Source: Rhodothermales bacterium
GTDB taxonomy: Bacteria; Bacteroidota; Rhodothermia; Rhodothermales; JAHQVL01
DNA: 62,732 nt
NCBI GenBank assembly: GCA_034439735.1
Contig: JAWXAX010000167.1
Span: forward strand, 1-62,732
Direction: 5' to 3'
Part shown: piece after piece, positions 54-31,104 of the stretch
Layout of the letters: every line of letters begins with the position of its first letter
Position numbering within the stretch: the stretch's first letter is position 1
Position numbers and translations under genes: made by a program
Notes under the pieces: generated by a model
What the model was told of the DNA's origin: nothing
The model's database searches: none
The model's input: only the letters and a program-made list of their open reading frames with translations

Positions 54-770
54 TTAAAAGCTCTCAGACTCGGCCGTTGCCAGCCGCTCCTGCATGAGCG
101 CCTCGGCCATCTGGAACTGATAGGGATAATCGATATCCAGCGACCGTTCGGGCGGCATGGCATAGCCAACCATCGGTTCGTGGAAGAAGGTGCCGTTGGC
201 CAGGAAGCGCGTTACGGAGGCCATATACAGCGCACCGTTGGGGTGATAGGCCGTGTCGATCGACTGGCTGCGGGTGGTCCGAAGGTAGGTTTCCGGCTCG
301 CGCATCGCAAGGCCGGCGTCCTCCGCGATTGTCATCGCCAGCTGGGGCGGAAACTCGTAGTTCGTGACGGCGATGAGACTGACGTCTCCCGTCTGCCGTG
401 CGTACAGGGCCGCGGCGCGGCGCACGTCTTCCGCCGTCCGGAACGGGCAGGTCGGCAGCATGACGGCCACATGGTCGTAGCGCGTGTTCATGCCGTCTCG
501 CCGGAGGTATTCTTCGGCGACGCGAACCATCGGAACGGTGTCGCCGGCGAGACTGGCGGCGCGTTCGTCCGTGCCGGCGCCCCATTCTCGGGCCACGGCG
601 AGGATCTCGGCATCGTCGGACGAGACGACGACATCCGCGAACACACCCGAATCGATAGCGGCTTCGAGGGTGTAAGCCAGCAGCGGCTTGCCGGCGAGGG
701 GGAGGACGTTTTTGCGGGGCACGCGTCGTGAGCCGCCGCGGGCCGGAATGAGGCAAAGGATGTTGGACAT
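54..770 (-). CDS. neuA: CMP-nonulosonate synthetase (acylneuraminate cytidylyltransferase, NeuA/PseF/LegF family)
   Basis: C-terminal 238 aa of ORF 54..1934: MSNILCLIPARGGSRRVPRKN, LPTCPFR and SLDIDYPYQF motifs; ATG at 770. Confidence 0.9.
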   Translation of the reverse strand: MSNILCLIPARGGSRRVPRKNVLPLAGKPLLAYTLEAAIDSGVFADVVVSSDDAEILAVAREWGAGTDERAASLAGDTVPMVRVAEEYLRRDGMNTRYDHVAVMLPTCPFRTAEDVRRAAALYARQTGDVSLIAVTNYEFPPQLAMTIAEDAGLAMREPETYLRTTRSQSIDTAYHPNGALYMASVTRFLANGTFFHEPMVGYAMPPERSLDIDYPYQFQMAEALMQERLATAESESF

Positions 771-775
771 ACGCG

Positions 776-2266
776 TCAGGCCGGCAGCGCCGCCAGGGTT
801 TTGGTGAAACGGGAACGGATGAGGTGTGCGTCGCGCACGGACTGCCGGATGATGGTGCAGACGCGGTCCACATCCTCCAGGGAAAGGTCGTTTGAGGTTG
901 GCAGATTCATCCCGCGGGCGGCCAGGGACGCCGTCACCGGGAAGTCTCCGTGGGCATAGGGGATGTACGCCGGCTGGTCGTGCAGCGGGCAGAAGAAATT
1001 GCGGGTCTCGATACCGTGTTCGGCGAGCACGCTGCGGAGCGTATCGCGGTCGAGGCCCAGCACCGACTCGTCGATCAGGATCGAGTACAGCCAGAATATA
1101 TTCCGGGCCCAGGGCGCCTCCGGGGGCAGGATAATGCCGGGTAGATCGCCGAGGCCCCGGTTGTAGCGGTCGACGATTTCGAGGCGTTTCGCGAGAAACG
1201 CGTCCACGCGCTCCATCTGGGCGAGGCCGATGGCCGCCTGAATGTTGGTCATCCGATAATTGAAGCCGGCATAGAGGTGCCAGTAGCGCCGGCTTTTCTC
1301 CATCCCATGATCCCGCAGGATCGCCATTTTCTCGTGCAAACTGCGGCGGTTGGTGGTCACCATCCCCCCTTCCCCGGTCGTGATGACCTTGTTGGCGAAG
1401 AAGCTGAAGCAGCCCACGTCGCCGAACGTGCCCACCTGCCGGCCTTTGTACTCGGCCCCGAGCGCCTCGGCGCAGTCCTCGACGACAAACAGGTTGTGCC
1501 GGCGGGCAAGGTCCATGATCGGGTCCATGTCGCACGGATGGCCGTAGAGGTGGACCGGCATGATGGCGCGGGTGCGGACGGAGAGGGCCTCGCGGACGCC
1601 GGCGGCGCTGAGGGTCCAGGTGTCGGGGTCGACGTCGGCGAAGACGGGGATGGCGCCGGCGTGGATGACCGCGTTGGCCGAGGCGCCGAATGTGAGGTTC
1701 GGGACGATCACCTCGTCCCCGGGCCCGACGCCGAGGGCGACGAGGGCGAGGTGCAGCGCCGTGGTGCCGCTGGAGGTACAGAGCGCGTGTTCGCTGCCGA
1801 CATACGCCCGGAACGTCTCCTGAAACCGGTTGACGTATTCGCCCTGCGACGAGATCCAGTTGGTGGCGATGCAGTCGCTGACGTACTTGAGTTCGTTGCC
1901 GCCCAGTGCCGGCTGGGTGACGGGGAGCCGCCACATCTCGGCCCAGGAGATCAGGTCCACCGGCTGCCCGCGTTCGTTGAGGAGCGGCAGATGGCGGACG
2001 CGTTCGTTGAGGAGCTTGAGGTTGTCGGCACGGGCCGCGCCGGCCGAGCCGGCGGCGAAGGTGCGGTTCATGTAGCGCTCGATCGGCTCATCGAGCGTGG
2101 CGCCGGCAAGCAGGGCGCGGCGGACGTCGCCATCCGTGAAAAGCCCCACCATCACCCCCTCGTCATCGACGACAAAGACGACGCCGAAGATGCCCCGGTT
2201 CAGGGCGCGGAGCAGGCTCTCGACGGTGTCGGAATACCGCAGCAGGTTATCCGTGATTGATCGCAT
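776..2266 (-). CDS. CBS-pair plus DegT/DnrJ/EryC1/StrS PLP sugar aminotransferase (perosamine synthase/LegC-like)
   Basis: N-terminal GLFTDGDVRRALL CBS motif; SSGTTALHLAL, EDCAEALGA, FSFFANKVITTGEGGM, NYRMTNIQAAIG. Confidence 0.88.
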   Translation of the reverse strand: MRSITDNLLRYSDTVESLLRALNRGIFGVVFVVDDEGVMVGLFTDGDVRRALLAGATLDEPIERYMNRTFAAGSAGAARADNLKLLNERVRHLPLLNERGQPVDLISWAEMWRLPVTQPALGGNELKYVSDCIATNWISSQGEYVNRFQETFRAYVGSEHALCTSSGTTALHLALVALGVGPGDEVIVPNLTFGASANAVIHAGAIPVFADVDPDTWTLSAAGVREALSVRTRAIMPVHLYGHPCDMDPIMDLARRHNLFVVEDCAEALGAEYKGRQVGTFGDVGCFSFFANKVITTGEGGMVTTNRRSLHEKMAILRDHGMEKSRRYWHLYAGFNYRMTNIQAAIGLAQMERVDAFLAKRLEIVDRYNRGLGDLPGIILPPEAPWARNIFWLYSILIDESVLGLDRDTLRSVLAEHGIETRNFFCPLHDQPAYIPYAHGDFPVTASLAARGMNLPTSNDLSLEDVDRVCTIIRQSVRDAHLIRSRFTKTLAALPA

Positions 2267-3149
2267 GGAGTTGATGACGTTCGGGGTGAAGGATGCCGGC
2301 GACGAGATCGCGTTGTTCGAGCATCTGGCTGATCGACAGCCCGTAGGCTTCCAGGACAAGGGTCGCCTCGGGGAAATGCCGGACGATCGGCCAGAACCAG
2401 GAATTGGCGCGAACAGGCAGGTTCTGGTCGGCCCAGCCGTCGTTTTCGCTGAGGTGAAAGGCTTCGATGCGGTGGGCCAGCCGCAGGCAGAACTCGCTCG
2501 GCATGAAGTCGCACGTCTTACCTGAGACGATGAGGTGGCCGACATCGACGAGGACGCCGAGGTTGCGGTCGTTGAGGCGCGCGAAGAAGCGCTCGAAGTC
2601 CTCGGCGGTGACCATGAGGAGGTGCCGCGTGCCGATCGGCCGGCGGGCCTGCACGTTATTTTCGACGAGGAGGCGAACGCCCGTGGCGCAGGCGTAGGTG
2701 CTGAGCGTGGCCATGCTCTCGCAGAAGCGGTCGAACGCGCGTTCGTACGCGTCAGTGTCGATCCCTAGCGCCAGGACGGCCTGGGCGTCGGCGTCGCCGA
2801 GCTGCTGTGGCGTGAGGTCGGCCACGAAGCCGCCGTGGACACTGTAAAACGGGGCGTCGAGGGCGGCGCAGAGGTCGATGGCCTGGTGGCAGAGCGCAAG
2901 GCTGGCGGCGAGGGCCGGCTTTTCGTCGGCCGCGAGGTTGAGCACAAAGGGCGTTGCCGGCGGCGGGAAGTAGTTATGGACCAGGCATGGTGCGAGCGTC
3001 TCAAGGCGATGGCCGACTGTCTTAAGGTCGACCGGATCGAGCCCCGAGCTGAGTTCGAGGTGCCGGATATCGTGCCGGAGGCAATGGAAGACGATGTCGT
3101 CCAGCGAGCGTGTCCGAAACGCACCGGTCGAGAGGTAGACTTCCTTCAT
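2247..3149 (-). CDS. Sugar phosphate isomerase/epimerase-like TIM-barrel protein (AP endonuclease 2 fold)
   Basis: LVHNYFP, YSVHGG, LLVENN, LVDVGHL, FHLSENDG metal-ligand pattern; coupled to neighbouring genes. Confidence 0.75.
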   Translation of the reverse strand: MKEVYLSTGAFRTRSLDDIVFHCLRHDIRHLELSSGLDPVDLKTVGHRLETLAPCLVHNYFPPPATPFVLNLAADEKPALAASLALCHQAIDLCAALDAPFYSVHGGFVADLTPQQLGDADAQAVLALGIDTDAYERAFDRFCESMATLSTYACATGVRLLVENNVQARRPIGTRHLLMVTAEDFERFFARLNDRNLGVLVDVGHLIVSGKTCDFMPSEFCLRLAHRIEAFHLSENDGWADQNLPVRANSWFWPIVRHFPEATLVLEAYGLSISQMLEQRDLVAGILHPERHQLHAINHG

Positions 3150-3604
3150 GCGAGTTGCATTTGCATCATGGTGTGCCCGGTGCGCGGGCAGATGTCGAAG
3201 GCCGAGAAGCCGGCGTTGAGATAGGCCTGGAGGGCCGGCGCGTTGTCCGGATGCACCTTCAGCATCAGGGCCGCGACGTCGTTGCGCCGGCACCAGTCGA
3301 TGGCCTCGGCGAGGGCGCGGCTGGCGAGTCCGTGGCCGGCGGCCTCACGGGCTATAAAGACCCCGAACGAGGGCCGGGCGAAGCCGTCGTCGAATCCTCG
3401 GAGCATAAAAAACCCGACGAGCCGGTGTTCTTGCCGGAAGCCCCAATACCGGTCGCGCCGCGCGGAGGCGAGGCGTTCGGCGAGGGCGGCCGGTGTATTT
3501 GAGGTAAAGGGGACAAAATATCTGCCATACTCCGGCCCGTCCGCAGTCAGCAGGGCGGCCAGATCAGCGGCGTCGGCCGGGCGGAGTTCAGCGAGCGTCG
3601 GCAT
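3146..3604 (-). CDS. GNAT family N-acetyltransferase
   Basis: FGVFIAREAAGHGLAS acetyl-CoA motif A and VHPDNAPALQAYLNAGF motif B; ATG at 3604. Confidence 0.8.
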   Translation of the reverse strand: MPTLAELRPADAADLAALLTADGPEYGRYFVPFTSNTPAALAERLASARRDRYWGFRQEHRLVGFFMLRGFDDGFARPSFGVFIAREAAGHGLASRALAEAIDWCRRNDVAALMLKVHPDNAPALQAYLNAGFSAFDICPRTGHTMMQMQLA

Positions 3605-5588
3605 CGTCCATGGCCACCTGGTCCTCGGAAACGGGGGCGTTTGCGGGGATATCGCACAGCGCCACGCGGCCAATGAGGCGTTCGAAGAAGACCGGCGCGA
3701 GGCCTGTCGCCGGCCGTTTGAAGGTGAGCATCTCCGGCGTAATTCGGTCGCCCTGGCGGATGTGCGTCCGCGTGTAGACGCTGCGGCGCATGCCGGGCGC
3801 ATTCTTTTTTTCCACCTCCGACGGAATTTTAAGCCCGGACCCGAGCATACGCTCGGCCTCGCCGATGCGGTCTGCCAGGACCCGAAACGCCGCGGGGTCG
3901 ACCGAGCTGGCGTGGTCCGGCCCGGGCATCCGGGTATCGAGCGTGAAGTGTTTTTCGATGACGCACGCGCCCAGGGCAACTGCGCCGATGCAGGCGGTGT
4001 CGGTGAGGGTATGATCCGAATAGCCGACGAGCACGTCGAACGCGTCGCGCATGGTCTGCATCGCCCGGAGGTTGGTATCCTCGATGGTCGATGGGTAGTT
4101 GGTGGTGCACTGGAGGAGGACGAGCTGGTCGTTGCCGGCGCCGCGGATCGCATCTACCGCGTTCGACACCTCGTCGAGTGTCGCCATACCGGTTGATAGC
4201 AGGATCGGCTTGCCTTTACGCGCCACGTATTTCAAGAAGTAGGGCTCGGCGACATGCAGGGACGCGAGTTTAAACGCCGGCATCCCGAGGTCGTCCAGGA
4301 AGTCCACATCCTCTACGTTGTAAGGCGTGGAGAGCAGCAGGACGCCGGTGGCTTCCGCGATCTCCATCAACTCGGCGTAGGCGTCGGACGACAGTTCGAG
4401 CCGGCGCAGCATATCTATTTGCGACTCGCCTGGATCGGTCGACCGCAGTTGATAGGCCGCTTTCGGCGCCTCCACCGACGCGACGCGTTCGGCCTTGAAG
4501 GTTTGAAATTTGACGCACCGGGCGCCGGCATCGCGCGCGGCGAAGAGCAGCTGCGCGGCGATGCGAGGGTCGCCGTTGTGGTTAACGCCGGCTTCGGCGA
4601 TCACGAATACAGGATGGCCGGCTCCGAGGCGGATGCCGGCGATGTTGAGGGTTTTTTCCATGGTTCTTGTGCGTTGACCCGGGCGGTGAATCGGTTTGCG
4701 CGCGGGCGTACGGGAAGGTGCGTAATAGCCGGCGGAAGCGAGGTCGAGGCCGGCGAGGTGATCCAGGCGCCGGTTTCCCGATTGAAAATGGCGAAGGAGC
4801 CGATCCCCCATCCCGCCGGCCTTGAAATACCGCTGCCGATCCCGCTCAATGCCGGGGTCGACGCGCGCCGTATTGAGGCGCTGCTGCCGGGTGAGGTCAG
4901 CCAGGTCGTACCGCGAGGCGTCGGCCCCGATAAACGTCAGCAGGCGCGCCATTTCCCCCGTCTCAAGGTCGGATAAGCGTTCCATGACCGCGACGTGGAT
5001 CCGGGCGTCGGGTAGAGCGGACGCGTAGAGGTCGTAGGTAGCGGCAAAGTCGTAAAACCAGAGGGGGATGCGCTTCACGCCAGCGGCGAGGCAGGCACAG
5101 ATCCCGGCGGCATCCTGCTGGCACCGCGGGAAACTGCATTCCTGCGGCCGGGTCGAGAGGGCGTCTTCAATCGCATAGGGCGGAAAGGCCGGATTCCCCC
5201 GGTCGTGCGTGTACCGCGAAAACAGCAGCTGATCCTGCCGCCGGATGGAGAGCACGATGGCGCGGGGCAGGCCTTTTGTGAGCGCGGCGATGCGTTCGGC
5301 CGTTTGCCGCATGCGATACGGCCGCAGCAGGTTTTCGTGGGAGAGCAGGGTCGGCATCTCCGGGTGGCAGACGTCGTCGAACGCCCGCTGAAGCTTCGAC
5401 AGATCCGCCACGTCGTTCATCGCCAGGTCGTTGACAAACGCGGTAGGGTCTACGCCGCCTCGGGCGGTCAGGTAGTCGGGGGCGCGTCGGCCGGCGTAGT
5501 GCACCTCGTCAATCCGTGGGAAGATGGCGTTTTGCAGCCAGGTCGTCGCCGTCTTGTGGTACCCGATATGGAGGATGACTGGAGACAT
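3588..5588 (-). CDS. neuB: Sulfotransferase-family domain in frame with nonulosonate synthase (NeuB/PseI/LegI family); probable internal start at 4661
   Basis: N-part HIGYHKTATTWLQ (PAPS-binding loop), LLSHENL, SIRRQDQLLFSRY; C-part IAEAGVNHNG, VKFQTF, LSTGMA, QCTTNYP, GYSDHT, IEKHFTLD, SAF-domain RRSVY; no stop between the parts. Confidence 0.85.
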   Translation of the reverse strand: MSPVILHIGYHKTATTWLQNAIFPRIDEVHYAGRRAPDYLTARGGVDPTAFVNDLAMNDVADLSKLQRAFDDVCHPEMPTLLSHENLLRPYRMRQTAERIAALTKGLPRAIVLSIRRQDQLLFSRYTHDRGNPAFPPYAIEDALSTRPQECSFPRCQQDAAGICACLAAGVKRIPLWFYDFAATYDLYASALPDARIHVAVMERLSDLETGEMARLLTFIGADASRYDLADLTRQQRLNTARVDPGIERDRQRYFKAGGMGDRLLRHFQSGNRRLDHLAGLDLASAGYYAPSRTPARKPIHRPGQRTRTMEKTLNIAGIRLGAGHPVFVIAEAGVNHNGDPRIAAQLLFAARDAGARCVKFQTFKAERVASVEAPKAAYQLRSTDPGESQIDMLRRLELSSDAYAELMEIAEATGVLLLSTPYNVEDVDFLDDLGMPAFKLASLHVAEPYFLKYVARKGKPILLSTGMATLDEVSNAVDAIRGAGNDQLVLLQCTTNYPSTIEDTNLRAMQTMRDAFDVLVGYSDHTLTDTACIGAVALGACVIEKHFTLDTRMPGPDHASSVDPAAFRVLADRIGEAERMLGSGLKIPSEVEKKNAPGMRRSVYTRTHIRQGDRITPEMLTFKRPATGLAPVFFERLIGRVALCDIPANAPVSEDQVAMDDADAR

Positions 5589-5863: not shown

Positions 5864-6694
5864 ATGGCAACAATCCAGCAGAACAAGCAGGTGTGGGACG
5901 GATCCTACAACTGGCAAGAAAAGGGCAACGAATGGTCGGCCTCGTGGGGTGGCCCCGAGATGCAGTGGCAGGCCAGCCTCATGCCGCGCCTCTACCCCTT
6001 CCTTCCCGCTGCGTCCATCCTCGAGATCGCGCCGGGATATGGCCGCTGGACCCATTTTCTGAAGGACCACTGCCGGCAGCTGCAGCTTGTCGAGCTCTCC
6101 CAGGAATGCATCGACGCGTGTAAACAACGCTTCGCCGGCGAACGGCACATCGGCTACCACGTGAACGACGGGCTGTCGCTGTCGATGATCGCCGACGACA
6201 GCATCGACCTGGCGTTCAGCTTCGACTCGCTCGTGCACGCCGAGCAGGAGGTGATCACGGCCTACCTCCAGCAGCTCCGCCGCAAGCTCCGGAAGGACGG
6301 CGTGGCGTTCCTGCATCATTCGAACGTGGGCGCCTACGACAGCTACATCCAGTCGGTCAAGGGGATGTCGCCGCAGGAGTTCGAGGCGCTCGGGATCGTC
6401 CGGCCCGTCGACCACTGGCGGGCGCATAGCGTGAGCGCCACGAGTTTCGCGCAGGCGGCGCGGCAGGCCGGCCTGGCCTGCATCAACCAGGAAATGATCA
6501 ACTGGCTGGATACGCCGCTGACGATCGACTGCATCTCCATCGTCACCCAACCGGGCTCGCGGTTCGCGCGGCCGAATCGCGTCTTCCGCAACCCCCAGTT
6601 CATGGATGAGGCGGCACACGCCGCACGCATCGCCCGCGCCTACGGCTACGCCGAAAGCGCTCGCCCCTCCGCCATCGAGAACCTCGCCATCTGA
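5864..6694 (+). CDS. Class I SAM-dependent methyltransferase
   Basis: ILEIAPGYGRWT motif I, SIDLAFSFDSLVH, LRKDGVAFLH. Confidence 0.85.
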   Translation: MATIQQNKQVWDGSYNWQEKGNEWSASWGGPEMQWQASLMPRLYPFLPAASILEIAPGYGRWTHFLKDHCRQLQLVELSQECIDACKQRFAGERHIGYHVNDGLSLSMIADDSIDLAFSFDSLVHAEQEVITAYLQQLRRKLRKDGVAFLHHSNVGAYDSYIQSVKGMSPQEFEALGIVRPVDHWRAHSVSATSFAQAARQAGLACINQEMINWLDTPLTIDCISIVTQPGSRFARPNRVFRNPQFMDEAAHAARIARAYGYAESARPSAIENLAI

Positions 6695-6697
6695 CCC

Positions 6698-8866
6698 ATG
6701 ACCCCGGAACGCCCGAGTGAACCGCGGCTGCGGCTGCTGCACGTCCACACCTTCTACCCGGAGGCGACCGAGCAGCTCTACCGCGCGCAGCCCGCCCTGA
6801 AGGATACTTCCTTCGACACCCAGATTCAGGCCGTGCTCGACGACGGCGTGGCGGCGGCGCACATCTTCACGCCCTATCTGACGGAGCACGGCTACGATGC
6901 TCGCTTCGTCGTAGCGGACAACCCGTACGCACAAATCCAATGGCTGAATGAGCATCCCGCAGAGGCGAGGGGCATTAACCAGGCAACGTGGGTGCACGAT
7001 GTGGTGCGCCGGCAGGTCGGGTTTTACCGGCCGGACATTTTTTATACCTGCAACCCCGTGCTCTTCGACACCGCCTTCATCGCCTCGCTCCCCTACCGCC
7101 CCCGGCTGGTGGCCGGCTGGCGCGCGGCGGACATCGCGGCGGGGGCGGACTGGTCGGGGTATGACCTCGTCCTTTCCGGCCTCCCTCTTTTGCTGGATGC
7201 CGTCCGCGCCATGGGGGCGCGGCACACAGCCTACTTCTACCCGGGCATGCCAGGGGGGATCGTGGAGTCCGTGGCGGACATCAAACCCGAGCTAGATGTG
7301 CTCTTCACCGGCTCGTGGACGATCCAACAACACGACACCCGTAACCGGATGCTCGAGCGCGTGGCCCGCGAAGCGGCCTCGGCGACGGCGCCGTTTTCGT
7401 TCGCGCTGCACACCGACCCCGGCCATCTGCCCGTGCCCGAGGCGCTGCGGCCGTTTGTGCGCCGGCCCGTGTTCGGCCAGGCCATGCACCAGACCCTTCG
7501 GCGGGCGCGCATCGTGCTGGATGCACGGGCGGATCATAAGCTGCGGAGCCCGAAGGGGGATACCGACCTTGGCGGGGGCGATACCGTCAACATGCGGCTG
7601 TTCGAAGCCACCGGCGCCGGCGCGTTTTTGCTGACCCAGCACGTGCCCGACCTGCATCGCTTCTTCGAACCCGGCCATGAGATCGAGACCTACCGGAGCG
7701 CCGACGAGCTGATCGAGAAGATCCGCTATTTCCTGGCGCATCCGGCCGAGCGCGAGGCCATCGCCCGGCGCGGCCAGGAGCGCTGCCAACGCGAGTACGA
7801 CATGCGGGCGCGCGCCCGCGTGTTCGACCGACTTATGAGGATGTATCTGCCGGCCGCCAAATCGGCCCCCCGGCAAGATCAAGCGGCGGCGTCGGCTGTG
7901 CCAGCAGCCACGCCCGCCGCCGAATTCAAGGCGCCGTCGCCTTCGGAGCTCGAGGCACTGCTCCAGACGGCGATCCAGACGTTTAAAACCGGCCAGTACC
8001 AGGACGCCTTCCGGGCCGCCTCGCGCGCCAAGGCCATGCGGCTGCCGTTGCTCAATGTGGACTACCTCCGGGCAGCCTGCCTGCTGCATCTGGGCAAGCC
8101 GTTCGACGCCCGCGAGGCGCTGCGCGAAGAACTACACCACTTCCCGGACAACGAAAACGCGCGTGCCTTGCTCCAGCAGGTGCTGCAGACCGCGCCCGAC
8201 ACAAAAGCCATCGGCGACGCCGCGTTCCAGGAGCTGCTCGCGCTCGTCCGCCCCCACACCATGATGCCCGAGAAGCGGCTCTACAACCTGTACGCCATCG
8301 CGCGGCGGGTGTGTGAGCAGGATATTCCGGGGGATTTCGTGGAGTGTGGCGTCGCGCGCGGCGGGTCGACCGCCATGCTCGCCCTCGTCATCCAGCGCTA
8401 CAGCAAACGGCAGCGGCACCACTACGCGTTCGACACGTTCAGCGGGATGCCCGAGCCGACCGTTCACGACACCCAGAACGGCATACCGGCGGACGAAACC
8501 GGCTGGGGCACGGGCACCTGCGCCGGCTCCGTCGATGGCGTCCGCGAGGTCTGCGAAACCCTCGGCGTCGCCGAGTTCGTCTCCCTCGTACCGGGCTTTT
8601 TTGAGGATACGCTGGCCGGCCAGAAAGACGGCATCGGCCCCATCGCCCTGTTGCACCTGGATGCCGACTGGTACTCGTCCACCATGACGATCCTCAACGA
8701 GTTCTACGACCAGGTCGTCCCCGGCGGCGTCATGCAATTCGACGACTACGGATGCTGGGAAGGCTGCCAGAAAGCCACCGACGAATTTCAGCAATTCCGC
8801 GGCATCTCCTTCCCCCTTGAACCCGTCCCGGGCGACAACCAGGGGATGTGGATGCTGAAGGGATAG
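6698..8866 (+). CDS. CgeB-like GT-B glycosyltransferase + TPR + TylF/MycF/NovP O-methyltransferase fusion
   Basis: NMRLFEATGAGAFLLT and ELIEKIRYFLAHPAEREAIARRG; helical TPR-like middle; GDFVECGVARGGS, FDTFSGMP, LHLDADWYSST, FDDYGCWEGC. Confidence 0.85.
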   Translation: MTPERPSEPRLRLLHVHTFYPEATEQLYRAQPALKDTSFDTQIQAVLDDGVAAAHIFTPYLTEHGYDARFVVADNPYAQIQWLNEHPAEARGINQATWVHDVVRRQVGFYRPDIFYTCNPVLFDTAFIASLPYRPRLVAGWRAADIAAGADWSGYDLVLSGLPLLLDAVRAMGARHTAYFYPGMPGGIVESVADIKPELDVLFTGSWTIQQHDTRNRMLERVAREAASATAPFSFALHTDPGHLPVPEALRPFVRRPVFGQAMHQTLRRARIVLDARADHKLRSPKGDTDLGGGDTVNMRLFEATGAGAFLLTQHVPDLHRFFEPGHEIETYRSADELIEKIRYFLAHPAEREAIARRGQERCQREYDMRARARVFDRLMRMYLPAAKSAPRQDQAAASAVPAATPAAEFKAPSPSELEALLQTAIQTFKTGQYQDAFRAASRAKAMRLPLLNVDYLRAACLLHLGKPFDAREALREELHHFPDNENARALLQQVLQTAPDTKAIGDAAFQELLALVRPHTMMPEKRLYNLYAIARRVCEQDIPGDFVECGVARGGSTAMLALVIQRYSKRQRHHYAFDTFSGMPEPTVHDTQNGIPADETGWGTGTCAGSVDGVREVCETLGVAEFVSLVPGFFEDTLAGQKDGIGPIALLHLDADWYSSTMTILNEFYDQVVPGGVMQFDDYGCWEGCQKATDEFQQFRGISFPLEPVPGDNQGMWMLKG

Positions 8867-8870
8867 CTTC

Positions 8871-9108
8871 GCGTTCCAGGTTCAATGTTCTATGTTCAAG
8901 GGCTTGAGAAACTGTTGAGATTTGCGTTTTGCATAGTGAGCAAGTCATCCCCGCGCAGGCGGGGACCCAGAAAAATGTCAGTCTGAGGGCTGGATCCCCG
9001 CCTGCGCGGGGATGACTATGCCTTGGGTTGTGGAAATCTCAACAGTTTCTGAACCCTATATAAATCCCCTTTCACCCCTTGAACATCGAACCTTAACCCT
9101 TAAACCCT
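8871..9108. mobile_element. Nested non-autonomous element: heptamer arms enclosing a 17-bp terminal inverted repeat, which encloses a REP pair
   Basis: AGAAACTGTTGAGATTT 8907-8923 and its exact reverse complement 9034-9050; GTCATCCCCGCGCAGGCGGGGACCCA 8944-8969 and TGGATCCCCGCCTGCGCGGGGATGAC 8991-9016; outer GTTC(A/T)A heptamers versus TTGAAC heptamers. Confidence 0.7.
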
Positions 9109-9110
9109 CC

Positions 9111-11753
9111 ATGCCCTCCATCCTCCATCTCATTGAAGCCATGGACGCCGGCGGGGCTACGCGGGCGGCGTTAACGACAGCACGGGCGTCCGCGCGGCTC
9201 GGGCCGTATACGCACCGGATCGCGGGGCTCGGAGGCGTGTCGGACGAGGCGCGGGCGCTGGCGCGGGAGGCCGGCGTCGAGGTGGTGGCGCTGCCGGACA
9301 CGACGGCGCTGCACGCCGCCATCGAGGCGGCGGACGTTGTACAGATCGAGTGCTGGAATGCGCCGGCGGTGATGCAATTCGTCCGCTCGAACTTCCCGGC
9401 CTGCCGGCTGGCTGTGTGGCACCATGTGGCCGGTACCGCCGCGCCCCAGCTGATCTCCCCGGCCCTTGCGGCGATGGCGGACCTGACGATCGCCTGCAAC
9501 CCGTTCACCTTCGAAACCAACGCGATCTTCCATACGCTGCCGGAAGAAAAGAAGGCAATGGTGCTCGCGCCGGCGGACCTCGACCGGGTGAAGGATGTCG
9601 TGCCCCGGCCACACGCCGGCTTTAATGTCGGCTACATCGGTACCGTCAGCTTCGTCAAGATGCACCCCGAATACGTCCCGATGAGTGCGTCGATCCGGAT
9701 TCCGGATGTGCGCTTTGTCGTCTGCGGCAACGGGATCCAGGAGCAACTCCGCCAACAGGCGACGGCGCTGAACGCTGCGGATCGGTTTGATTTTAAGGGG
9801 TATGTGGAGGATATCGCCGGCGTGTTGGCCACGATGGACGTCTACGGCTACCCGCTTTGCCCCGAGACCTATGCCGCGGCCGAGCTTAACCTTCAGGAGG
9901 CGATGTACGCCGGCGTGCCGCCTGTCGTTTTCCCGTACGGCGGCGTCGTCCGCCTCATCGAGCATGAACAGACCGGGCTGATTGTCGATACGCCGGCCGC
10001 CTACCGCGACGCCGTCGAACACCTCTACCATCATCCCGAAGAACGCCTGCGCCTCGGCCGCAACGCCGCGGCACACGCCCGCGCCCACTTCGGCGCGGAA
10101 AACGCGGCGGTGGCGATGAATGCCTGTTATGAGCGGCTGATGGCCCAACCGCGCCGCCACCACGCCTGGTCCGGCGGCCCCTCCCCTTCGACGGCCCATA
10201 CGCTGGCGGACTCGCTCGGAGACGAGGGCGCGGACCTGACGACGAGCCTCGCCGGCCGCTGGTCCGCCCAGGTGCTCGCCGCCGACCGCCGGATCGGGGC
10301 CGCGAGTTTCCTTATGTACAATAGCGGCTATTACCGCTATGCCCGGCATGCGCCGACCGATGGCCACCTCCGCCTCTGGTGCGGTCTCTACCTGGAGGCC
10401 AACGGCGCGTCGGCGCAGGCGATCGGCGAATACGCCGCCGCGTTCCAGGCCGGGCTCCAGGACATCCGCCTCCAGTGGTATTTCGCGCGGACGCTCCGCG
10501 CCATGGGCGAACACGACAAGGCGCGGCCGATTTACGAGCGCCTCCGGGCCGGCGTGCAGGGGTTCGATGCGATGACGGGTGACGATGCGTATCGGCCGAA
10601 GCCGGCCGTCGCCGGAGCCCCGCCCCGGGTGACGGCGCTGGTATCGACTTACAACGCCGAGGCGTTTATCCAGGGTTGTATGGAAAACCTCGTAGGCCAG
10701 ACCCTTTTCGCAAAAGGCGGGCTCGAAATCGTCGTCGTCGACGCCGCGAGTCCCCAGAACGAACGGGCGGTTGTCGAGGCCTTCCAGCGCCGGCACGAGC
10801 GCATCCGCTACGTGCGTACGCCGGCGCGCGAGCCCCTTTACGCGAGCTGGAACCGCGGCATCGGGATGGCGGCCGGCAGCTACCTGACCAGCGCCAACAC
10901 CGACGACCGCCACCGCGCGGACGCCCTGGAGGTCATGGCCGATCTCCTGGACGAAAGCCCCGACATCGCCCTGGTGTATCCGGGCCAGATCGACACCAGC
11001 GTCCCGAATGAGACGTTTGTTACCACGTCCTCGAAGAAGCGCCTCGACTGGCCGGTGTACTCCTATCGCGAACTCGAGCGTCACTGCATCATCGGCTCCC
11101 AGCCGATGTGGCGGAAGCGGCTGCATGACGATTACGGGTTGTTTCGGGAGGAGTTGATCTCGGCCGGCGACTACGAGTTCTGGCTCCGTGTCGGCAAACA
11201 CGAGCCGTTTTACCGGTATCCGGGGACGCTGGGGCTGTATTATCGGAACCCCGCCGGCATCGAACACGGCGCGGCGACGGGCAAACGCGAGACGATCCGG
11301 ATCTGGGAGGAATACGGGATGTTCGACCGCGGCGTGTTGACGATCCTCGATGGCCAGCTCTTCTCCCGGGCGCACATCCAGCGGTATTTCCCGGAAGGAG
11401 GATACACGCCGGCGAAGACCCTCCCCGAGTACATCACCCGGTTCCAGGAAAGCCTCTCCCGCCGCGACCTAGCGCTGGCCACACGCATCGCCGACGAGGC
11501 CGTGAACGCTTTCCCGCGCGCGCCGTATCCGTTTGTGCTCCGCGCCATTTCATCGCGGATGCAGGGCCAGTTCGGGCCGGCGATCGAGGCGCTGGAGGCC
11601 TCGTTGAAGCTGGAGGAAAGCCCCGAGGCGCTGTACGAACTCATCCAGACCTCCCTCGCCACCGAACACCACACCGAGGCCCGCCGCGCCGGCGATTACC
11701 TCAAGCAGCGCTTCCCCGATTGGGCCGCGATGGTGGAAAAAATGGCGTTGTAA
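9111..11753 (+). CDS. Multidomain glycosyltransferase: GT4 + TPR + GT2 + TPR
   Basis: MDAGGATRA and ELNLQEAMYAGVPPV (GT4); VSTYNAEAFI, VVDAAS, NTDDR, GDYEFWLR (GT2); helical repeats between and after. Start moved to ATG 9111 because the upstream in-frame part is repeat DNA. Confidence 0.85.
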   Translation: MPSILHLIEAMDAGGATRAALTTARASARLGPYTHRIAGLGGVSDEARALAREAGVEVVALPDTTALHAAIEAADVVQIECWNAPAVMQFVRSNFPACRLAVWHHVAGTAAPQLISPALAAMADLTIACNPFTFETNAIFHTLPEEKKAMVLAPADLDRVKDVVPRPHAGFNVGYIGTVSFVKMHPEYVPMSASIRIPDVRFVVCGNGIQEQLRQQATALNAADRFDFKGYVEDIAGVLATMDVYGYPLCPETYAAAELNLQEAMYAGVPPVVFPYGGVVRLIEHEQTGLIVDTPAAYRDAVEHLYHHPEERLRLGRNAAAHARAHFGAENAAVAMNACYERLMAQPRRHHAWSGGPSPSTAHTLADSLGDEGADLTTSLAGRWSAQVLAADRRIGAASFLMYNSGYYRYARHAPTDGHLRLWCGLYLEANGASAQAIGEYAAAFQAGLQDIRLQWYFARTLRAMGEHDKARPIYERLRAGVQGFDAMTGDDAYRPKPAVAGAPPRVTALVSTYNAEAFIQGCMENLVGQTLFAKGGLEIVVVDAASPQNERAVVEAFQRRHERIRYVRTPAREPLYASWNRGIGMAAGSYLTSANTDDRHRADALEVMADLLDESPDIALVYPGQIDTSVPNETFVTTSSKKRLDWPVYSYRELERHCIIGSQPMWRKRLHDDYGLFREELISAGDYEFWLRVGKHEPFYRYPGTLGLYYRNPAGIEHGAATGKRETIRIWEEYGMFDRGVLTILDGQLFSRAHIQRYFPEGGYTPAKTLPEYITRFQESLSRRDLALATRIADEAVNAFPRAPYPFVLRAISSRMQGQFGPAIEALEASLKLEESPEALYELIQTSLATEHHTEARRAGDYLKQRFPDWAAMVEKMAL

Positions 11754-16098: not shown

Positions 16099-18054
16099 TC
16101 ACTCCATCTCCGGCGTCGCAGGCTTGTCGGCGAGGAGATGGTAGGTTTCGCTGGCTTTTTTGAACGTTTCGTGGTCGTCCAGTTGCCGGGCAGCGTGGGC
16201 GAGGGCGAGCCAGATGTCGGGGTCTTCCGGGAGGCGCCCGGTGGCATCCCGGAGCAGATCGAGCGCTTCGGCATGCCGGCCGGTATCCATGTAGAGCTTG
16301 CCGAGGCTGGTGAGAACCGCCGGCTCGTATGGCGCCTGGAGCCGGGCCTGTTCGAAGGCATTTAGGGCTGCTTCGCGATTTCCCGCGCGGAGGCGGATGA
16401 GGCCAAGGCGCACGAGCACCGTGAGCGGGGCGTGGGTTTCGTCGAACGAGGCAGAGAAGCGCTCGAGAAGTCGGGCGGATTCCTCCGTTCGGCCGGCCAT
16501 CGTCAGGATATCGTACAACTCCCACACCGGCTGGGCGTGCCGCGGAAAGACGCGCGCCAGTTCGCGCACCAGCGCTTCCGCCTCGGCCGGCTGAGCCGTT
16601 CGCAGCCTCCGCACAGCCCGGACCCCCTCCACCAGGCGCTCCTGTTCGGCCGTCTTCATGGCCGCGCAGGCCGCGATAATGTCCGGCATAGGCTCATCCC
16701 AGGCGTGGGCGTCGAGGCTGGCGCCCTGCCGGCACAACGCCAGCACAAGCCGCGCCAGCCGCTCGGCCGCGAGGCCGTCGGCGCTGTGGTTCACATCGGC
16801 CAGATGCTGGTTCTGGCGTTGGACGACGGCGCGCGCCCTGCCGGGGTCGGCCAGTAAGGATTCAATGGCCGCGGTCAGGTCGGGCAGCCGGCGCACCACC
16901 AGCGGGCCCACCAGCCCCTCGTGCGCGAGCGCGGCTTCGGGATCCATCGTCACCGCAATCACAGGGCGACGCCGAAGCATGGACTCGACTACGGCGTGCG
17001 AGGATTCGAGGCAGACGACCATATCCGCCGCCCGCACCGCATCGCCGTTCGAGCATCGCACGAGATAGACATCCCCATAGCCTTCTTCATCCAGCCACTT
17101 CTCGTAGTGTTTGCCCAGGCCGGCCACATCGGCGCCGGCGGCCACAAGGAGAGCCTCATCCTCCGCGGCCGGCTCGACGATCAGCTGGCACCCGCCCTGC
17201 ACGGCCCGGGTCGCTTGCAGAGCGGCTATGTGCAGCGCCATGGAAAAGCGGAAGCGCCGTGCAAAATCCGCCGACACGCCTTCAAACGGAGGCACCCGGA
17301 GGAGGATCACCGGGCGGTCCGGCGGCATCCCGAGCCGTAGTCGGGCCTCGTGCTTCTGCGTCCGTTGCTCATTTCCGCCCGCCCCGGGCTCCGCCTTTCC
17401 GGGCCAGCCCGTCACAAACACCTGGTCGGACGCTACGCCGGCCGCGACGAGTCGGTCGCGGTCGAGCCGGCTTCCCACCGCGGCGAAATCGGCAAACAGT
17501 GCCGGCTCCGCCACGGCCTCGAGGCCGCTGCCGTACCACCACTCGCCCAGGGCCAGCGTCGGCACCTGTGCTTCGCGGGCGAAATGGACCACCGCGCGCG
17601 AAGCGTCCGAATGGTCGTCGCCAACGACGATGAGGCGGACATCATACGCGTGCAGGACGCGTTTGAGGGTGTCGATTGCCAGCACCTGCTGCTCCAGCCG
17701 GCGGAGGAGCGAACGGAAGAACGGTTGCCCCACCTCGTGGAGCAACCCGCCGTCCGTCGAAGCGGCTCCGGGCGCCACCTCCGCGATCTTCATCAGTGTC
17801 AGGAGGGCGTTCACGCGCCGCGTGCTTTCGACGGCGGCGCGCTCGCGCAAGGGTAGCGAGGCAAAGGCGTGCCAGTCGATGCATGGGATGCCGGCCGCAT
17901 GCGCCGCATGCAGCGTCGGGCGGTCGCGCAGGGCGTCCGCTTCTTTGAGGATGGGCACATAGCCGGCTTCGGAGGCCGCCCGGAGCACCGACATGTACGC
18001 GTTCGCCACGCCGCTCGTCTCGTAGAACACGACGCCTTTTTTCATCTCACGCAT
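16099..18054 (-). CDS. GT-B-like protein (CDP-glycerol transferase/CMP-ulosonate transferase-like) with C-terminal TPRs
   Basis: AREAQVPTL, ADFAAVGS, VFVTGWP, ADMVVCLESSHAVVESMLRRRPVI, DGLAAERLA; TPR consensus in the last ~170 aa. Confidence 0.65.
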   Translation of the reverse strand: MREMKKGVVFYETSGVANAYMSVLRAASEAGYVPILKEADALRDRPTLHAAHAAGIPCIDWHAFASLPLRERAAVESTRRVNALLTLMKIAEVAPGAASTDGGLLHEVGQPFFRSLLRRLEQQVLAIDTLKRVLHAYDVRLIVVGDDHSDASRAVVHFAREAQVPTLALGEWWYGSGLEAVAEPALFADFAAVGSRLDRDRLVAAGVASDQVFVTGWPGKAEPGAGGNEQRTQKHEARLRLGMPPDRPVILLRVPPFEGVSADFARRFRFSMALHIAALQATRAVQGGCQLIVEPAAEDEALLVAAGADVAGLGKHYEKWLDEEGYGDVYLVRCSNGDAVRAADMVVCLESSHAVVESMLRRRPVIAVTMDPEAALAHEGLVGPLVVRRLPDLTAAIESLLADPGRARAVVQRQNQHLADVNHSADGLAAERLARLVLALCRQGASLDAHAWDEPMPDIIAACAAMKTAEQERLVEGVRAVRRLRTAQPAEAEALVRELARVFPRHAQPVWELYDILTMAGRTEESARLLERFSASFDETHAPLTVLVRLGLIRLRAGNREAALNAFEQARLQAPYEPAVLTSLGKLYMDTGRHAEALDLLRDATGRLPEDPDIWLALAHAARQLDDHETFKKASETYHLLADKPATPEME

Positions 18055-18466
18055 CCCCCTTGGCCTCTCGCCGATGCAGCGCCCACATGAAATACGGGAA
18101 GGATCCTTCCTCCAACAACTCGGCCAGCGGCACGCCTTCGTAGGTCAGTACGGCCCGGGCTTCGGGATGCGCCGCCCAGGACCGGGCTTCCTCCCGCGCC
18201 GCGGCGGCACGGGCGGCAACGACGTCACGCGGCTCCTCGGACCAGTGGCGGTCGAGCGCGGCGGCAATGTCTGCCGGCGTCACCCGCCAGCCGTTGCCGC
18301 AGGTCGCGCACGTACACGCCCCGACCGGTAGGCCGGCCACCGTCGGCAACAACGCCGCGTACACCGCCTGGCACGCCGCGCATCGCACGATGAGATAGGC
18401 GGCGTGCCGGCGGGGCTCGATGCCCAGAATCGTCGCCTCGGGTGAAAAGATCTTGGCCCTGGTCAT
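18047..18466 (-). CDS. Small hypothetical protein with CxxC...CxCxxC (zinc-ribbon-like)
   Basis: RCAACQ and ACTCATCG; ATG 18466 follows the upstream stop and its own stop overlaps the next start. Confidence 0.6.
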   Translation of the reverse strand: MTRAKIFSPEATILGIEPRRHAAYLIVRCAACQAVYAALLPTVAGLPVGACTCATCGNGWRVTPADIAAALDRHWSEEPRDVVAARAAAAREEARSWAAHPEARAVLTYEGVPLAELLEEGSFPYFMWALHRREAKGDA

Positions 18467-18470
18467 GCGG

Positions 18471-19883
18471 TCAACCCGTGGTTTCCGTCGGGATGAGTTG
18501 CGCAAGCGTTTCGCGGAGGGCGCCTTTCTGGAACAGGGCCGCCTTGCGGTCGCTCCGCTTCTCCATCGGCAGGGCCGAGAGAACCTTGCGGGTCTCGGTG
18601 ATCTGCTGGAAGAGCGAGTAGTGCTGCTCGATGAAATCGCGGTACGCCTTCGAACTGTAGATGTGCGACGTGACCATGCCCACGGCCTCGTCGACCGTAT
18701 TAAAAAGCACCTGTTCCGGCCAGATGCCGCCCGAGAACGGGAAGTTATGGACGACCGGCTTGATGCCGCAGGCCATCGCCTCGGCGATCGAGTAGCCAAA
18801 GCTCTCGTGCATCGAGGTGGAGAGGAGGAACTGCTTGTCCGACAGCCATCCACCGATGTCCTTCTGCCAGCCGTCGAACTGGACGTTGTTCGCGAGGCCC
18901 ATCTCCTTGATCATGTGGTTCCAGTAGATCTGCACCATCGGCTCCTGGAATTGGCCGGCGACATACAGCTTGTACCGAGCGTCGAAGCGGACGAGCTTGG
19001 CGAGGATTTGCAGGAGCAACGTCGGGTTTTTGCGGGAATGGATGTAGCCCACGCTGGCGAGGTTGAAGCCCGGGCTGCGCGGCGTGAACCGGTAGCGGTC
19101 GATCGCTACGCCGTTGCACACTACGGCCACCTGGACGCGGTCCTCGATCCCCGGCACGGTGCTGCGGAGGATCGTGATGAGGTGGTCGGTGACCAGCATC
19201 AGGGTGTCGATATTCTCCCACTGGACCTGCGCCGGCATCGGGGTGAAGACCTCGTAGCGATGCAGCCGGCAGACGATCGGCTTGCGGCGGGCGACTTCGA
19301 GGCGCGAGGCGTGGACCACGAGTTCGTCGCACCACTCGAACCAGCAGATATCGGCCTGCTCCATAAGCGGGGCGACCTCCTCGATCCGGGAGATGACGGC
19401 CTTCGTGACGTCGTAATGACGGTTGAGACCGCCGATGAGGTCGTCAAGGAACTGGTCGAAGCCGGCGCGGACGAACAGCGTCAGTTTCCGTTTGCCCATC
19501 GAGAGACCGGGTTCGACGCCGGGAATACGCTGTGGGACGGCGTCGATCTGGGCGAGCTGGTTGGCGTTCGCCACGAGGCGCGCTTTGCGGTACCATTCGA
19601 GCGCGTACGGGAAATCGGCCATCTGCTCGTACAGATTGCCCAGCAGGTAAAGCACTTCGAAGCGCTCCGGCGCCTGGGCGAGGGCGGCGAAAAGGCGTTC
19701 CTCGGCCTCGGGATACTGTTTCCGTTCGAGCGCGACGATCGCCCCCAGGAGGTAATAGCGCTCGTCCTGCCCGTAGGTCTTCCGCCACGTCGCCAGCAGC
19801 GCTTCCGCTTCCGAAAGCTGCCCGTTTTGAATGCAGGATTTGATGGTTTCTTTTGCGTCAAACTGTCGTTGATCCATGGCCAT
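18471..19883 (-). CDS. TPR + GT4 glycosyltransferase
   Basis: N-terminal TPRs (LYLLGNLYEQMADFPYALEWYRKA); CRLHRYE, GYIHSRKNP, ESFGYSIAEAMACGIKPV. Confidence 0.85.
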   Translation of the reverse strand: MAMDQRQFDAKETIKSCIQNGQLSEAEALLATWRKTYGQDERYYLLGAIVALERKQYPEAEERLFAALAQAPERFEVLYLLGNLYEQMADFPYALEWYRKARLVANANQLAQIDAVPQRIPGVEPGLSMGKRKLTLFVRAGFDQFLDDLIGGLNRHYDVTKAVISRIEEVAPLMEQADICWFEWCDELVVHASRLEVARRKPIVCRLHRYEVFTPMPAQVQWENIDTLMLVTDHLITILRSTVPGIEDRVQVAVVCNGVAIDRYRFTPRSPGFNLASVGYIHSRKNPTLLLQILAKLVRFDARYKLYVAGQFQEPMVQIYWNHMIKEMGLANNVQFDGWQKDIGGWLSDKQFLLSTSMHESFGYSIAEAMACGIKPVVHNFPFSGGIWPEQVLFNTVDEAVGMVTSHIYSSKAYRDFIEQHYSLFQQITETRKVLSALPMEKRSDRKAALFQKGALRETLAQLIPTETTG

Positions 19884-19913
19884 TGAGGGTGTTGTGAGAT
19901 GAAATAGGTAGCG

Positions 19914-20930
19914 TTAATTCCAGCCGGCGAGCCGTTTGAACTCGGCCGGCAGGAGGATTCGGTTGGATTCGAGCACGCGGAGCACCTCCCGCGACTCGTC
20001 GTCGGACGCGACGGGCTCCCGGCCGCCGAGGAGGTGTGCGATAAACGCCGCCGCCTCGCGGCCGCGGGTGTAAGAAGCCTGAAGGACGTCGCCCCGCTTG
20101 CGGAGCAGGTCTCGGAAGAGCGGCAGGCTCAGGCGCCTCATTTCGATCAGGTAGGTGGCTCCGACGCACATCGACACGAGGTGCATGGTGATTTTATCGA
20201 TCCCGTAGGTTTCGCGGGAAGACAGCGAGCCGTGCTGGACGAGCCGCATGTAGCGGCCGGCGCGCGCGATCCGCACCCGGCGCTCCGGGAAGCGGGCGCA
20301 GAGGCGGGCGAGGAAGACATAGTCTTCGCTCACCTTAAAAAACGATTCAGGCTCCGTGCCCCGCAGGTCGGCCGGCCGAAAGAGACTGCCGAGGGTCAGC
20401 ACCTGCATTTCGCCGGTGGCCACGAGGTAACAGAGCAGCTCGAAGCCGGTCTTGCCGTCGAACCCGCGGCGGTCGTACTGGAGGTTCATCTGGAGGGACT
20501 CGTTGAAGGCGAAGACCGCCGGCATGGCGGTGAAGAGCGCCGGGGCGTCCATGTCCATCAGCGCCGTCGCCTCATCCAGGAACGCATCCGCCTCGTTCAG
20601 GAAGTCGTCGTCGTCGCAGAACCCCATGTAGGGCGTGTCGGCCAGGGCGATGCCCGCGCCGCGGGTGCAGGCGACGCCGCGGTTGGTGTCGTAGTGATGG
20701 ATGTGGATGTCGGGCCGGCCAGCGGTCAGCAGGTCGAGGTCCGCCCTCGTCGTGGCGCTGGCGCCGTCGCAGACGATCTGGAGCGGCAGTCCATCCCACA
20801 GCCCCTCCTCCAGGTACAGGGAGAAATACCGGAGGCGGTCGAACAGCGGCATGACAAACGTCACGTCGGCGTGTCGACTGGCGCCTCGCGGCGTGGCGCG
20901 GGCTTTCTGGAGTTCGAGGATGCTGTTCAT
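19914..20930 (-). CDS. GT2 family glycosyltransferase
   Basis: VTFVMPLFDR, IVCDGAS, NRGVACTRGAGI, FCDDDD, SEDY. Confidence 0.8.
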   Translation of the reverse strand: MNSILELQKARATPRGASRHADVTFVMPLFDRLRYFSLYLEEGLWDGLPLQIVCDGASATTRADLDLLTAGRPDIHIHHYDTNRGVACTRGAGIALADTPYMGFCDDDDFLNEADAFLDEATALMDMDAPALFTAMPAVFAFNESLQMNLQYDRRGFDGKTGFELLCYLVATGEMQVLTLGSLFRPADLRGTEPESFFKVSEDYVFLARLCARFPERRVRIARAGRYMRLVQHGSLSSRETYGIDKITMHLVSMCVGATYLIEMRRLSLPLFRDLLRKRGDVLQASYTRGREAAAFIAHLLGGREPVASDDESREVLRVLESNRILLPAEFKRLAGWN

Positions 20931-30270: not shown

Positions 30271-31104
30271 ATGGGAGCATTTGGAGATCTGTCTCGCATT
30301 AATACCAACGTCCAATCGATGGGCGCTTTGAATCAGTTGTACCGCACGAACATGAACCTCGGCATGCGGCAGTTTCGGCTGGCCAGCGGCAGCAGGATCA
30401 ACCAGGCGGAGGACGATTCAGCCGGTTACTCTATCTCGCAGAAGCTGGGAGCCCGGCTTCGCGGTCAGGCTCAGGCCCTCTCGAACATCGGCGACGCCAA
30501 AAGCATGTTGACGGTGGCCGAGGGCGCTTTGAACACCATCATGGACATCCTCGCCACGATGAAAGAGAAGGTGATCCAGGGCGGCAACGACACACTGGGC
30601 AGCGAAGAACGCTCCCTCGTGAAGTCCCAGTTGAACAGCCTTTCCACGGAGATCAACTCCGTGATCAGCAGCGCGCTGTTCCTGAGCCGCGGCATCTTTT
30701 CGTCGACCGCACTTAGCTTTATGGTCGGCCCGTCCAGCAATCACCTGTTCCAGGTGGCCGTAGGCGCCATATCGGCCGGCGGACTGGGCGTAGGCTCGGC
30801 CAACCTCGCGGTGGCATCGGCCCAATCGGCGGCGGCGTCGTTGGGCGGAATTGACCGTAGCATTTCTACCATTGCGAGCATCATGGCCGGCCTGGGTAAC
30901 TCCCAACTGGCGCTGAGCTATAAGCAAGATAACCTTTCCACCTCGATCATCACCAACGAGTCGGCCAAGAGTCGTATCTCCGACGCCGACTTTGCCAAGG
31001 AGCAAATGGAGATCGCCAAGCTGCAGATTCTGCAGCAGACGGGGCTCAACGCGCTGGTTAACGCCAACGTAGCGCCCCAGTCGATCCTTGCGTTACTCCA
31101 GTAG
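30271..31104 (+). CDS. fliC: Flagellin 1 (minimal, 277 aa)
   Basis: RINTN, RLASGSRINQAEDDSAG, AEGAL, SRISDADFAKE, ILQQTG. Confidence 0.95.
   Translation: MGAFGDLSRINTNVQSMGALNQLYRTNMNLGMRQFRLASGSRINQAEDDSAGYSISQKLGARLRGQAQALSNIGDAKSMLTVAEGALNTIMDILATMKEKVIQGGNDTLGSEERSLVKSQLNSLSTEINSVISSALFLSRGIFSSTALSFMVGPSSNHLFQVAVGAISAGGLGVGSANLAVASAQSAAASLGGIDRSISTIASIMAGLGNSQLALSYKQDNLSTSIITNESAKSRISDADFAKEQMEIAKLQILQQTGLNALVNANVAPQSILALLQ

Follow-up and report, generated by a model that had tools for sequence, protein, structure and literature searches.

Introduction

Does a single reading frame that joins a sulfotransferase to a nonulosonate synthase mark a selected bifunctional enzyme, or have two adjacent genes run together? 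The question is raised by contig JAWXAX010000167.1 of a Rhodothermales bacterium (assembly GCA_034439735.1), whose 62,732 nt form the stretch analysed here (the window). On its minus strand, a frame of 666 codons runs from the ATG at 5588 to a stop codon ending at 3588 with no internal stop. A previous reading made from the letters alone (the sequence-only reading) had taken this frame as a sulfotransferase-NeuB fusion suggesting channelled synthesis of a sulfated sialic-acid-like sugar, with the caveat that a stop codon might recently have been lost or that two isoforms might exist. The stop-free frame, the GYY residues, the 20-residue linker and the NeuB ATG at 4661 all lie where that reading placed them; both domains had been named rightly, and the fusion is present in the DNA, as judged from the frame, Pfam, the fold and bridging contigs. 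The caveat proved to be the better reading, given the spacer-like linker, the context of the NeuB ATG and the singleton status of the fusion. The explanation that we favour, as a probable one, is that an intact gene of a four-cysteine (Cys4) sulfotransferase subfamily became continuous with the neuB frame across a likely former spacer, probably by a recent lineage-specific loss of a stop codon; the predicted role of the enzyme, sulfation of an ulosonate-containing glycan, would not depend on the fusion.

The fused gene and its junction

The features of the fused open reading frame (ORF) are as follows.
3588..5588, minus strand: fused ORF, 666 aa, sulfotransferase-fold domain + 20-aa linker + NeuB/SAF (frame, domain match, bridging contigs)
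4722..5588, minus strand: sulfotransferase-fold domain, residues 1-289, complete, Cys4 subfamily (relatives, profile, AlphaFold model)
5532..5570, minus strand: 5'-phosphosulfate-binding loop, residues 7-19, K12/T15/T16 kept (family alignment)
5202..5243, minus strand: 3'-phosphate-binding motif R116...S124, then the subfamily R-x-x-H-D (family alignment)
5091..5138, minus strand: Cys4 insert C151-x-F-P-x-C156...C164-x-C166 (invariant in 14/14 close sequences)
4722..4730, minus strand: GYY codons, usual C-terminus of the stand-alone family and probable site of the lost stop (relatives' ends)
4662..4721, minus strand: 60-nt linker of non-coding composition, likely a former intergenic spacer or 5' region of neuB (composition score, likeness to G001)
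3588..4661, minus strand: neuB1, 357 aa, with its own start-like ATG (Pfam, alignment, start context)

The sulfotransferase part comprises residues 1-289 and the NeuB + SAF part residues 310-666. Pfam places NeuB at residues 350-586 (289.5 bits) and SAF at residues 601-658 (43 bits; E = 2.5e-86 over residues 350-658) and finds no match in the first 309 residues. The junction (4660-4730) is bridged with 0 differences by contigs from four of seven runs (X1, X2, X5 and X7) with depths of 4.7-29.5 (4.7 in X7); the contigs of X6, X8 and X9 fail to cross it. The comparison was with contigs, which hide rare alleles, rather than with raw reads. X1, X2 and X5 are possible sources of the same genome (X7 is not flagged as one), and all bridging runs are 2018 microbial-mat samples that may belong to one campaign. 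The exact 666-residue protein is recorded on five contigs. The 666-codon fused gene is real, and an assembly artefact at the junction is unlikely. Two observations had been named in the sequence-only reading as speaking against the fusion, separate genes in all relatives and a stop codon at the junction: the first holds for all relatives seen, the second for no contig compared across the junction.

The family to which the N-terminal half belongs usually ends at the GYY codons, of which TAT-TAC occupy 4727-4722: among 39 full-length Cys-motif relatives, 27 stop within four residues of a terminal GY-like motif (matching residues 287-288). The linker that follows (codons 290-309) has the lowest coding score of the 33 20-codon windows scored in the ORF, a value usual for DNA that precedes starts; a coding-like linker, the mark of a selected fusion, was not found, the score lying in the bottom 0.23% of the genome's coding windows. 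The 3' end of the linker weakly resembles the non-coding DNA before neuB of the congener G001 (22 of 1000 shuffles as good), and no likeness was found to the DNA upstream of neuB in the congener G002 or the family member G004 (432 and 671 of 1000 shuffles as good, respectively). An open linker is in itself unsurprising: when its 60 nt are shuffled, 72% of the products are stop-free in frame. With a one-in-three chance that the two frames agree, roughly a quarter of stop losses would produce a fusion of this kind. In upstream context, the NeuB ATG outscores 79% of held-out true starts as well as 99.9% of internal ATGs; compared with it, the ATG at 5588 has the weaker context. From these signals the linker is likely to be a former spacer, the fusion looks recent and accidental, arising through stop loss, and two translation products are likely. 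The exact lost stop cannot be placed, because the GCA following TAC is two changes away from any stop.

The sulfotransferase domain

Single-sequence searches with the N-terminal half gave no Pfam match (PF00685 and PF13469 included) and no PDB match. Its relatives are more telling. At E <= 0.001, 254 were found among 1.84 billion representatives, and the counts below use the best 150 of these; the closest relative among the matches listed shares 40% identity. PF00685 is matched at E <= 0.01 by 43 of 74 aligned relatives, and a profile of the 74-sequence family matches PDB entry 3rnl with an E value of 9e-16 and heparan 3-O-sulfotransferases at ~1e-6. An AlphaFold (AF2) model built on the family alignment has a predicted local distance difference test score (pLDDT) of 94.4 and superimposes on the heparan 3-O-sulfotransferase 3bd9 with a Z score of 17.9 and an r.m.s.d. 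of 3.0 for 225 aligned residues. The matches 3bd9, 7sce, 3rnl and 1nst have Z scores of 16.7-17.9, the top five (Z 15.9-17.9) are all sulfotransferases, and the Foldseek probability to sulfotransferases is 1.0; the best structural matches are glucosamine 3-O/N-sulfotransferases. As modelled, the N-terminal half is an intact sulfotransferase fold of the type that uses 3'-phosphoadenosine 5'-phosphosulfate (PAPS).

The domain retains 38 of 39 columns conserved across 37 Cys-motif relatives, and its codon use is host-like. Residues K12, T15, T16, R116 and S124 are present here and conserved across the family; they lie in two motifs that we take to be the 5'-phosphosulfate-binding (5'-PSB) and 3'-phosphate-binding (3'-PB) motifs. 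A signature C-x-[WFY]-P-x-C...C-x-C, which comes after the 3'-phosphate motif, defines the Cys4 subfamily and occurs in 49 of the 150 matches. The insert may bind a metal, which is a guess.

A search of the Atlas with the whole protein gave no usable feature match and, by structure, only other NeuB fusions; with the N-terminal half it returned sulfotransferase or hypothetical clusters. No match was found in the plasmids and viral contigs searched. A match to the broad profile in genome G006 was rejected as a subfamily member: it is a stand-alone 312-residue protein that lacks the Cys4 insert and does not reach the 1e-25 threshold of the Cys4 profile. At L130:6016-6996 and L134:4986-6017 there are divergent Cys-rich members that have a variant cysteine spacing and an altered P-loop; the first of them nevertheless lies within a NeuB/DHDPS/NeuA cluster (DHDPS, dihydrodipicolinate synthase).

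Search for other fused copies

The N-terminal half used as a query against proteins of 366-1166 residues recovered itself alone (4829 candidates), and the profile against proteins of 596-2000 residues recovered itself and one 742-residue protein without NeuB. Among the 150 relatives, 148 have at most 366 residues and none carries NeuB. From the other direction, 360 NeuB proteins of at least 626 residues were found, and the best 120, which include the window protein, were compared with the sulfotransferase profile: it matched none of the 119 others. Their partners are NeuC, NeuA, oxidoreductases, radical-SAM and other domains, and 89 of these 119 listed matches have more than 200 residues ahead of NeuB. 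At E <= 1e-25, the Cys4 profile matched none of 284 other genomes of the order (at most eight candidates scored per genome). Long NeuB frames in G029 and G016 were set aside as not being sulfotransferase fusions; that of G016 looks by eye like a cytidylyltransferase-type fusion. The full-length homologues spanning both domains that the sequence-only reading suggested looking for were therefore found neither in the protein searches nor in the genomes of the order, and recurrence of the architecture in other genomes was not seen. The fusion is so far a singleton, which falls short of proving its absence elsewhere.

In literature available mostly as abstracts, with few subscription papers and no supplements, we found no published sulfotransferase-NeuB fusion, bacterial ulosonate (nonulosonate) sulfotransferase or Cys4 sulfotransferase subfamily. 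The terms 'fusion' and 'sulfo' are absent from the main text of PMC8208679, whose supplements could list such architectures.

Association with ulosonate gene clusters

Neighbourhoods were compared at 118 loci, 80 from a genome scan (best 80 of 393), 37 from a metagenome pattern scan and one from G006; 25 of the 37 pattern matches proved not to be sulfotransferases and were set aside. Clustered at 60% identity, the 93 loci with a sulfotransferase give 12 Cys-motif groups and 65 others. A CMP-ulosonate-synthetase-like gene together with a DHDPS-like gene lies in the flank in 7/12 Cys-motif groups versus 0/65 others, and NeuA or NeuB in 7/12 versus 1/65. The Fisher p value of 2.5e-6 overstates the contrast owing to kinship and uneven sampling, and we rely on the counts. 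The tie to ulosonate pathways that had been read from the window alone is borne out by these groups, which span differently labelled taxa. In the seven linked groups the synthase is NeuB in four and KdsA/DAHP-like in three; the sulfotransferase is the nearest detected gene to the CMP-synthetase in five and is fused in none.

A recurring cassette of CMP-ulosonate synthetase, a DHDPS/aldolase-like gene and a NeuB or KdsA/DAHP-like synthase is seen at L034, L035, L036, L016, L115, L122, L123, L124, L130 and L131, with NeuB in two copies at L034-L036 and L016. With its DHDPS-like partner, this cassette may define an undescribed ulosonate pathway. At L075:2870-5118, a non-Cys4 sulfotransferase lies ~160 nt upstream of neuB, unfused, as a second, independent adjacency of the two genes.

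Congeners and the slot upstream of neuB

The gene neuB is unfused in the congeners G001 and G002 and in G004, with 84-85%, 79-80% and 65% identity to neuB1, respectively. G002 is syntenic throughout, but without the sulfotransferase gene. Directly before its neuB lies a stretch that resembles the upstream DNA and first seven codons of the gene (0/1000 shuffles as good); the seven codons of this relic (L003:1440-1500) share the frame of neuB and resemble the start of the sulfotransferase, with ACG in place of ATG. From this remnant, the sulfotransferase gene probably predates the split from G002 and was deleted there, i.e. it is probably ancestral. The slot in G001 holds frameshifted remnants of other genes, recognized by eye and with no Pfam match; they lie on both strands (L018:1990-2830), and one of them resembles a methyltransferase. 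Short tandem repeats of 12 nt stand right before the neuB start. No credible sulfotransferase remnant was found by tblastn at the G001, G002 and G004 loci. Gene content in this slot ahead of neuB is thus volatile, and both congeners keep the pathway in spite of lacking the sulfotransferase gene.

Explanation and alternatives

In the explanation that we favour, the operon would be translated into the 666-residue chimera from the ATG at 5588 and free NeuB from the ATG at 4661, with the two domains acting independently. NeuB would condense phosphoenolpyruvate with an N-acylhexosamine that the aminotransferase and acetyltransferase encoded next to it supply, before activation of the product by NeuA. 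The sulfotransferase would draw PAPS from the fused ATP-sulfurylase/APS-kinase of the genome, a 607-residue frame on contig C88 (G000:C88:14490-15611; L113, L114). Its target would be the ulosonate, before transfer (as CMP-sugar) or afterwards, or else another sugar next to it in the glycan; the glycan would most likely decorate the flagellins of the adjoining cluster. The fusion would be tolerated because NeuB commonly accepts N-terminal partners. Judged from motifs and gene company, the N-terminal enzyme likely sulfates an ulosonate-containing glycan, and the Cys4 subfamily is a candidate for sulfating bacterial sialic-acid-like sugars.

Several observations weigh against this explanation. 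At the junction, natural tails of 8-28 residues occur in 6/39 relatives and the end motif is missing in another 6/39, so that a natural tail reaching neuB is possible; the GCA codon is two changes away from any stop; and contigs of the four bridging runs contain no stop-bearing allele. The start-context score partly reflects non-coding composition and is not independent of the linker score, and the internal ATG 393 also scores 5.6. Each long-protein search scored ~8000 candidates, and a third of the long NeuB matches were listed. The neighbourhood comparison is biased in that Cys4 loci and control loci came, for the most part, from different scans; 5/12 Cys4 groups have no ulosonate genes within reach (two on contigs shorter than 8 kb), and one Cys4 group lies near glmS/glmU.

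A bolder version, which we hold only tentatively, is that the Cys4 sulfotransferases are an undescribed bacterial ulosonate O-sulfotransferase family, a functional counterpart of vertebrate Wscd1/2, working with the NeuA + DHDPS-like + NeuB/KdsA-like cassette on 8- or 9-carbon acidic sugars; the chimera would then be a Rosetta-stone fusion and the product a sulfated nonulosonate on flagellin.

It is rather doubtful that the sulfotransferase is a passenger of a fast-turnover tailoring slot, acting on another acceptor or about to be lost, with no role in nonulosonate chemistry. Such a passenger would fit the volatile slot (deleted in G002, methyltransferase-like and other remnants in G001), the pathway kept without the gene in both congeners, the five Cys4 groups without nearby ulosonate genes and the glucosamine 3-O/N-sulfotransferases as best structural matches. 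The domain, however, shows no decay in its conserved columns, and the enrichment beside NeuA and DHDPS-like genes is strong across differently labelled taxa.

Less probable still is a selected fusion in which the sulfotransferase, docked on NeuB, receives the nascent nonulosonate (or its hexosamine precursor) by channelling and sulfates it. Both domains are intact, the frame is identical in four runs, the subfamily is tied to ulosonate clusters, and pathway fusions to NeuB are common, as with the Leptospira NeuB-TIM fusion (accessible text of PMC3438082); the seven-codon remnant of G002, in frame with neuB, may even record an older fusion, with a one-in-three chance of that frame. Channelling, as the sequence-only reading had it, is nevertheless unsupported, because the fusion is a singleton, the linker is spacer-like rather than adapted to coding and the free relatives adjoin a CMP-synthetase gene without being fused to neuB. 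In addition, the internal NeuB start context is kept, relatives occur also with KdsA/DAHP-like synthases (3/7 linked groups), and vertebrate sialate sulfotransferases act after glycosyl transfer, not on CMP-Sia (accessible text of PMC9304399). A single-sequence AlphaFold model of the whole protein has a pLDDT of 34 and is uninformative on domain contact.

Contigs drop rare variants, and three bridging runs may be the genome's own source, which might allow an assembly error at the open junction or a minority allele in a two-gene population; this is very improbable given four separately assembled runs with the same junction and the exact protein on five contigs.

Relation to known systems

NeuB-family synthases (PF03102 + SAF; NeuB/SiaC, LegI, PseI, SpsE) have the same TIM-barrel + SAF layout, conserved motifs and operon company of NeuA, aminotransferase and acetyltransferase genes. 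The window protein differs in its N-terminal sulfotransferase and in scoring under both equivalog cut-offs (TIGR03569, NeuB_NnaB, 382.4 < 399.65; TIGR03586, PseI, 278.5 < 340.25), so that the product sugar of NeuB1 cannot be assigned; its operon differs in a DHDPS-like gene and a second, divergent NeuB, the part on contig C231 being placed by synteny. The NeuB part matches PDB entries 8h2c, 1vli and 1xuu at E ~1e-52. Residues E332, H526, E545, H547 and R625 are invariant in the NeuB alignment and presumably catalytic. The N-terminal half shares its fold and both PAPS-binding motifs with PAPS sulfotransferases of the heparan 3-O-sulfotransferase, NDST and Alicyclobacillus 3rnl types, from which it differs by an identity of only ~16%, the lack of a Pfam match and the Cys4 insert, absent from the aligned stretches of 3rnl and 3-OST-3.

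Sialic-acid O-sulfation is known in animals, where, according to the accessible text of PMC9304399, Wscd1/2 act on sialoglycans. With vertebrate Wscd1/Wscd2, which are Golgi enzymes, the present enzyme would share function only, namely the proposed use of PAPS to sulfate a nine-carbon acidic sugar. Other NeuB fusions (NeuC-, NeuA-, oxidoreductase-, radical-SAM- and TIM-barrel-NeuB) likewise unite a pathway neighbour with NeuB in one chain; these recur in many proteins, whereas the present one was found once. By itself it is a curiosity, confined to one lineage, with NeuB fusing readily. The sulfotransferase subfamily is the better lead: in sludge, sialylated and sulfated glycoconjugates have been found and the bacterial sulfotransferases responsible are poorly known (accessible text of PMC10483923). 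Its tie to ulosonate cassettes offers concrete enzymes to assay and, if they are active, a tool for making sulfated sialosides.

The surrounding operon and minor observations

The operon order is ST-neuB1, GNAT, TIM-barrel, CBS-DegT and neuA (ST, sulfotransferase), with a divergent set of genes beside it.
3146..3604, minus strand: GNAT N-acetyltransferase, overlapping the end of neuB1 (Pfam)
2247..3149, minus strand: xylose-isomerase-like TIM-barrel protein (Pfam)
776..2266, minus strand: CBS + DegT/DnrJ aminotransferase (Pfam)
54..770, minus strand: NeuA/PseF-like cytidylyltransferase (Pfam)
5864..11753, plus strand: methyltransferase, glycosyltransferase-TPR-TylF and GT4-GT2-TPR glycosyltransferase, divergent, same glycosylation island (Pfam)

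Synteny with G002 makes it likely that contig C231, with a DHDPS-like gene, the second NeuB and a 527-residue protein, carries the continuation of the operon. No NeuC- or PseB/LegB-like gene was found in the operon stretch seen. The second NeuB (L115:955-1980, L016:16184-17233) shares ~30% identity with NeuB1; its N-terminal motif is altered, and 14 residues are deleted from the loop that follows the second strand.

Flagellins are encoded at 30271 and 31316 with TPR glycosyltransferases nearby, and the proteins scanned gave no Maf/FlmG family match. The two flagellins are short (275-277 aa) and belong to a large flagellar/chemotaxis cluster (20034-62155); the TPR-bearing glycosyltransferases lie at 16102-20930 and 32275-33447. 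At one of the cassette loci, a GDP-mannose 4,6-dehydratase is interrupted by an intein (L122:1925-4171), and the same locus carries a GT29 sialyltransferase-like gene (L122:10636-11256).

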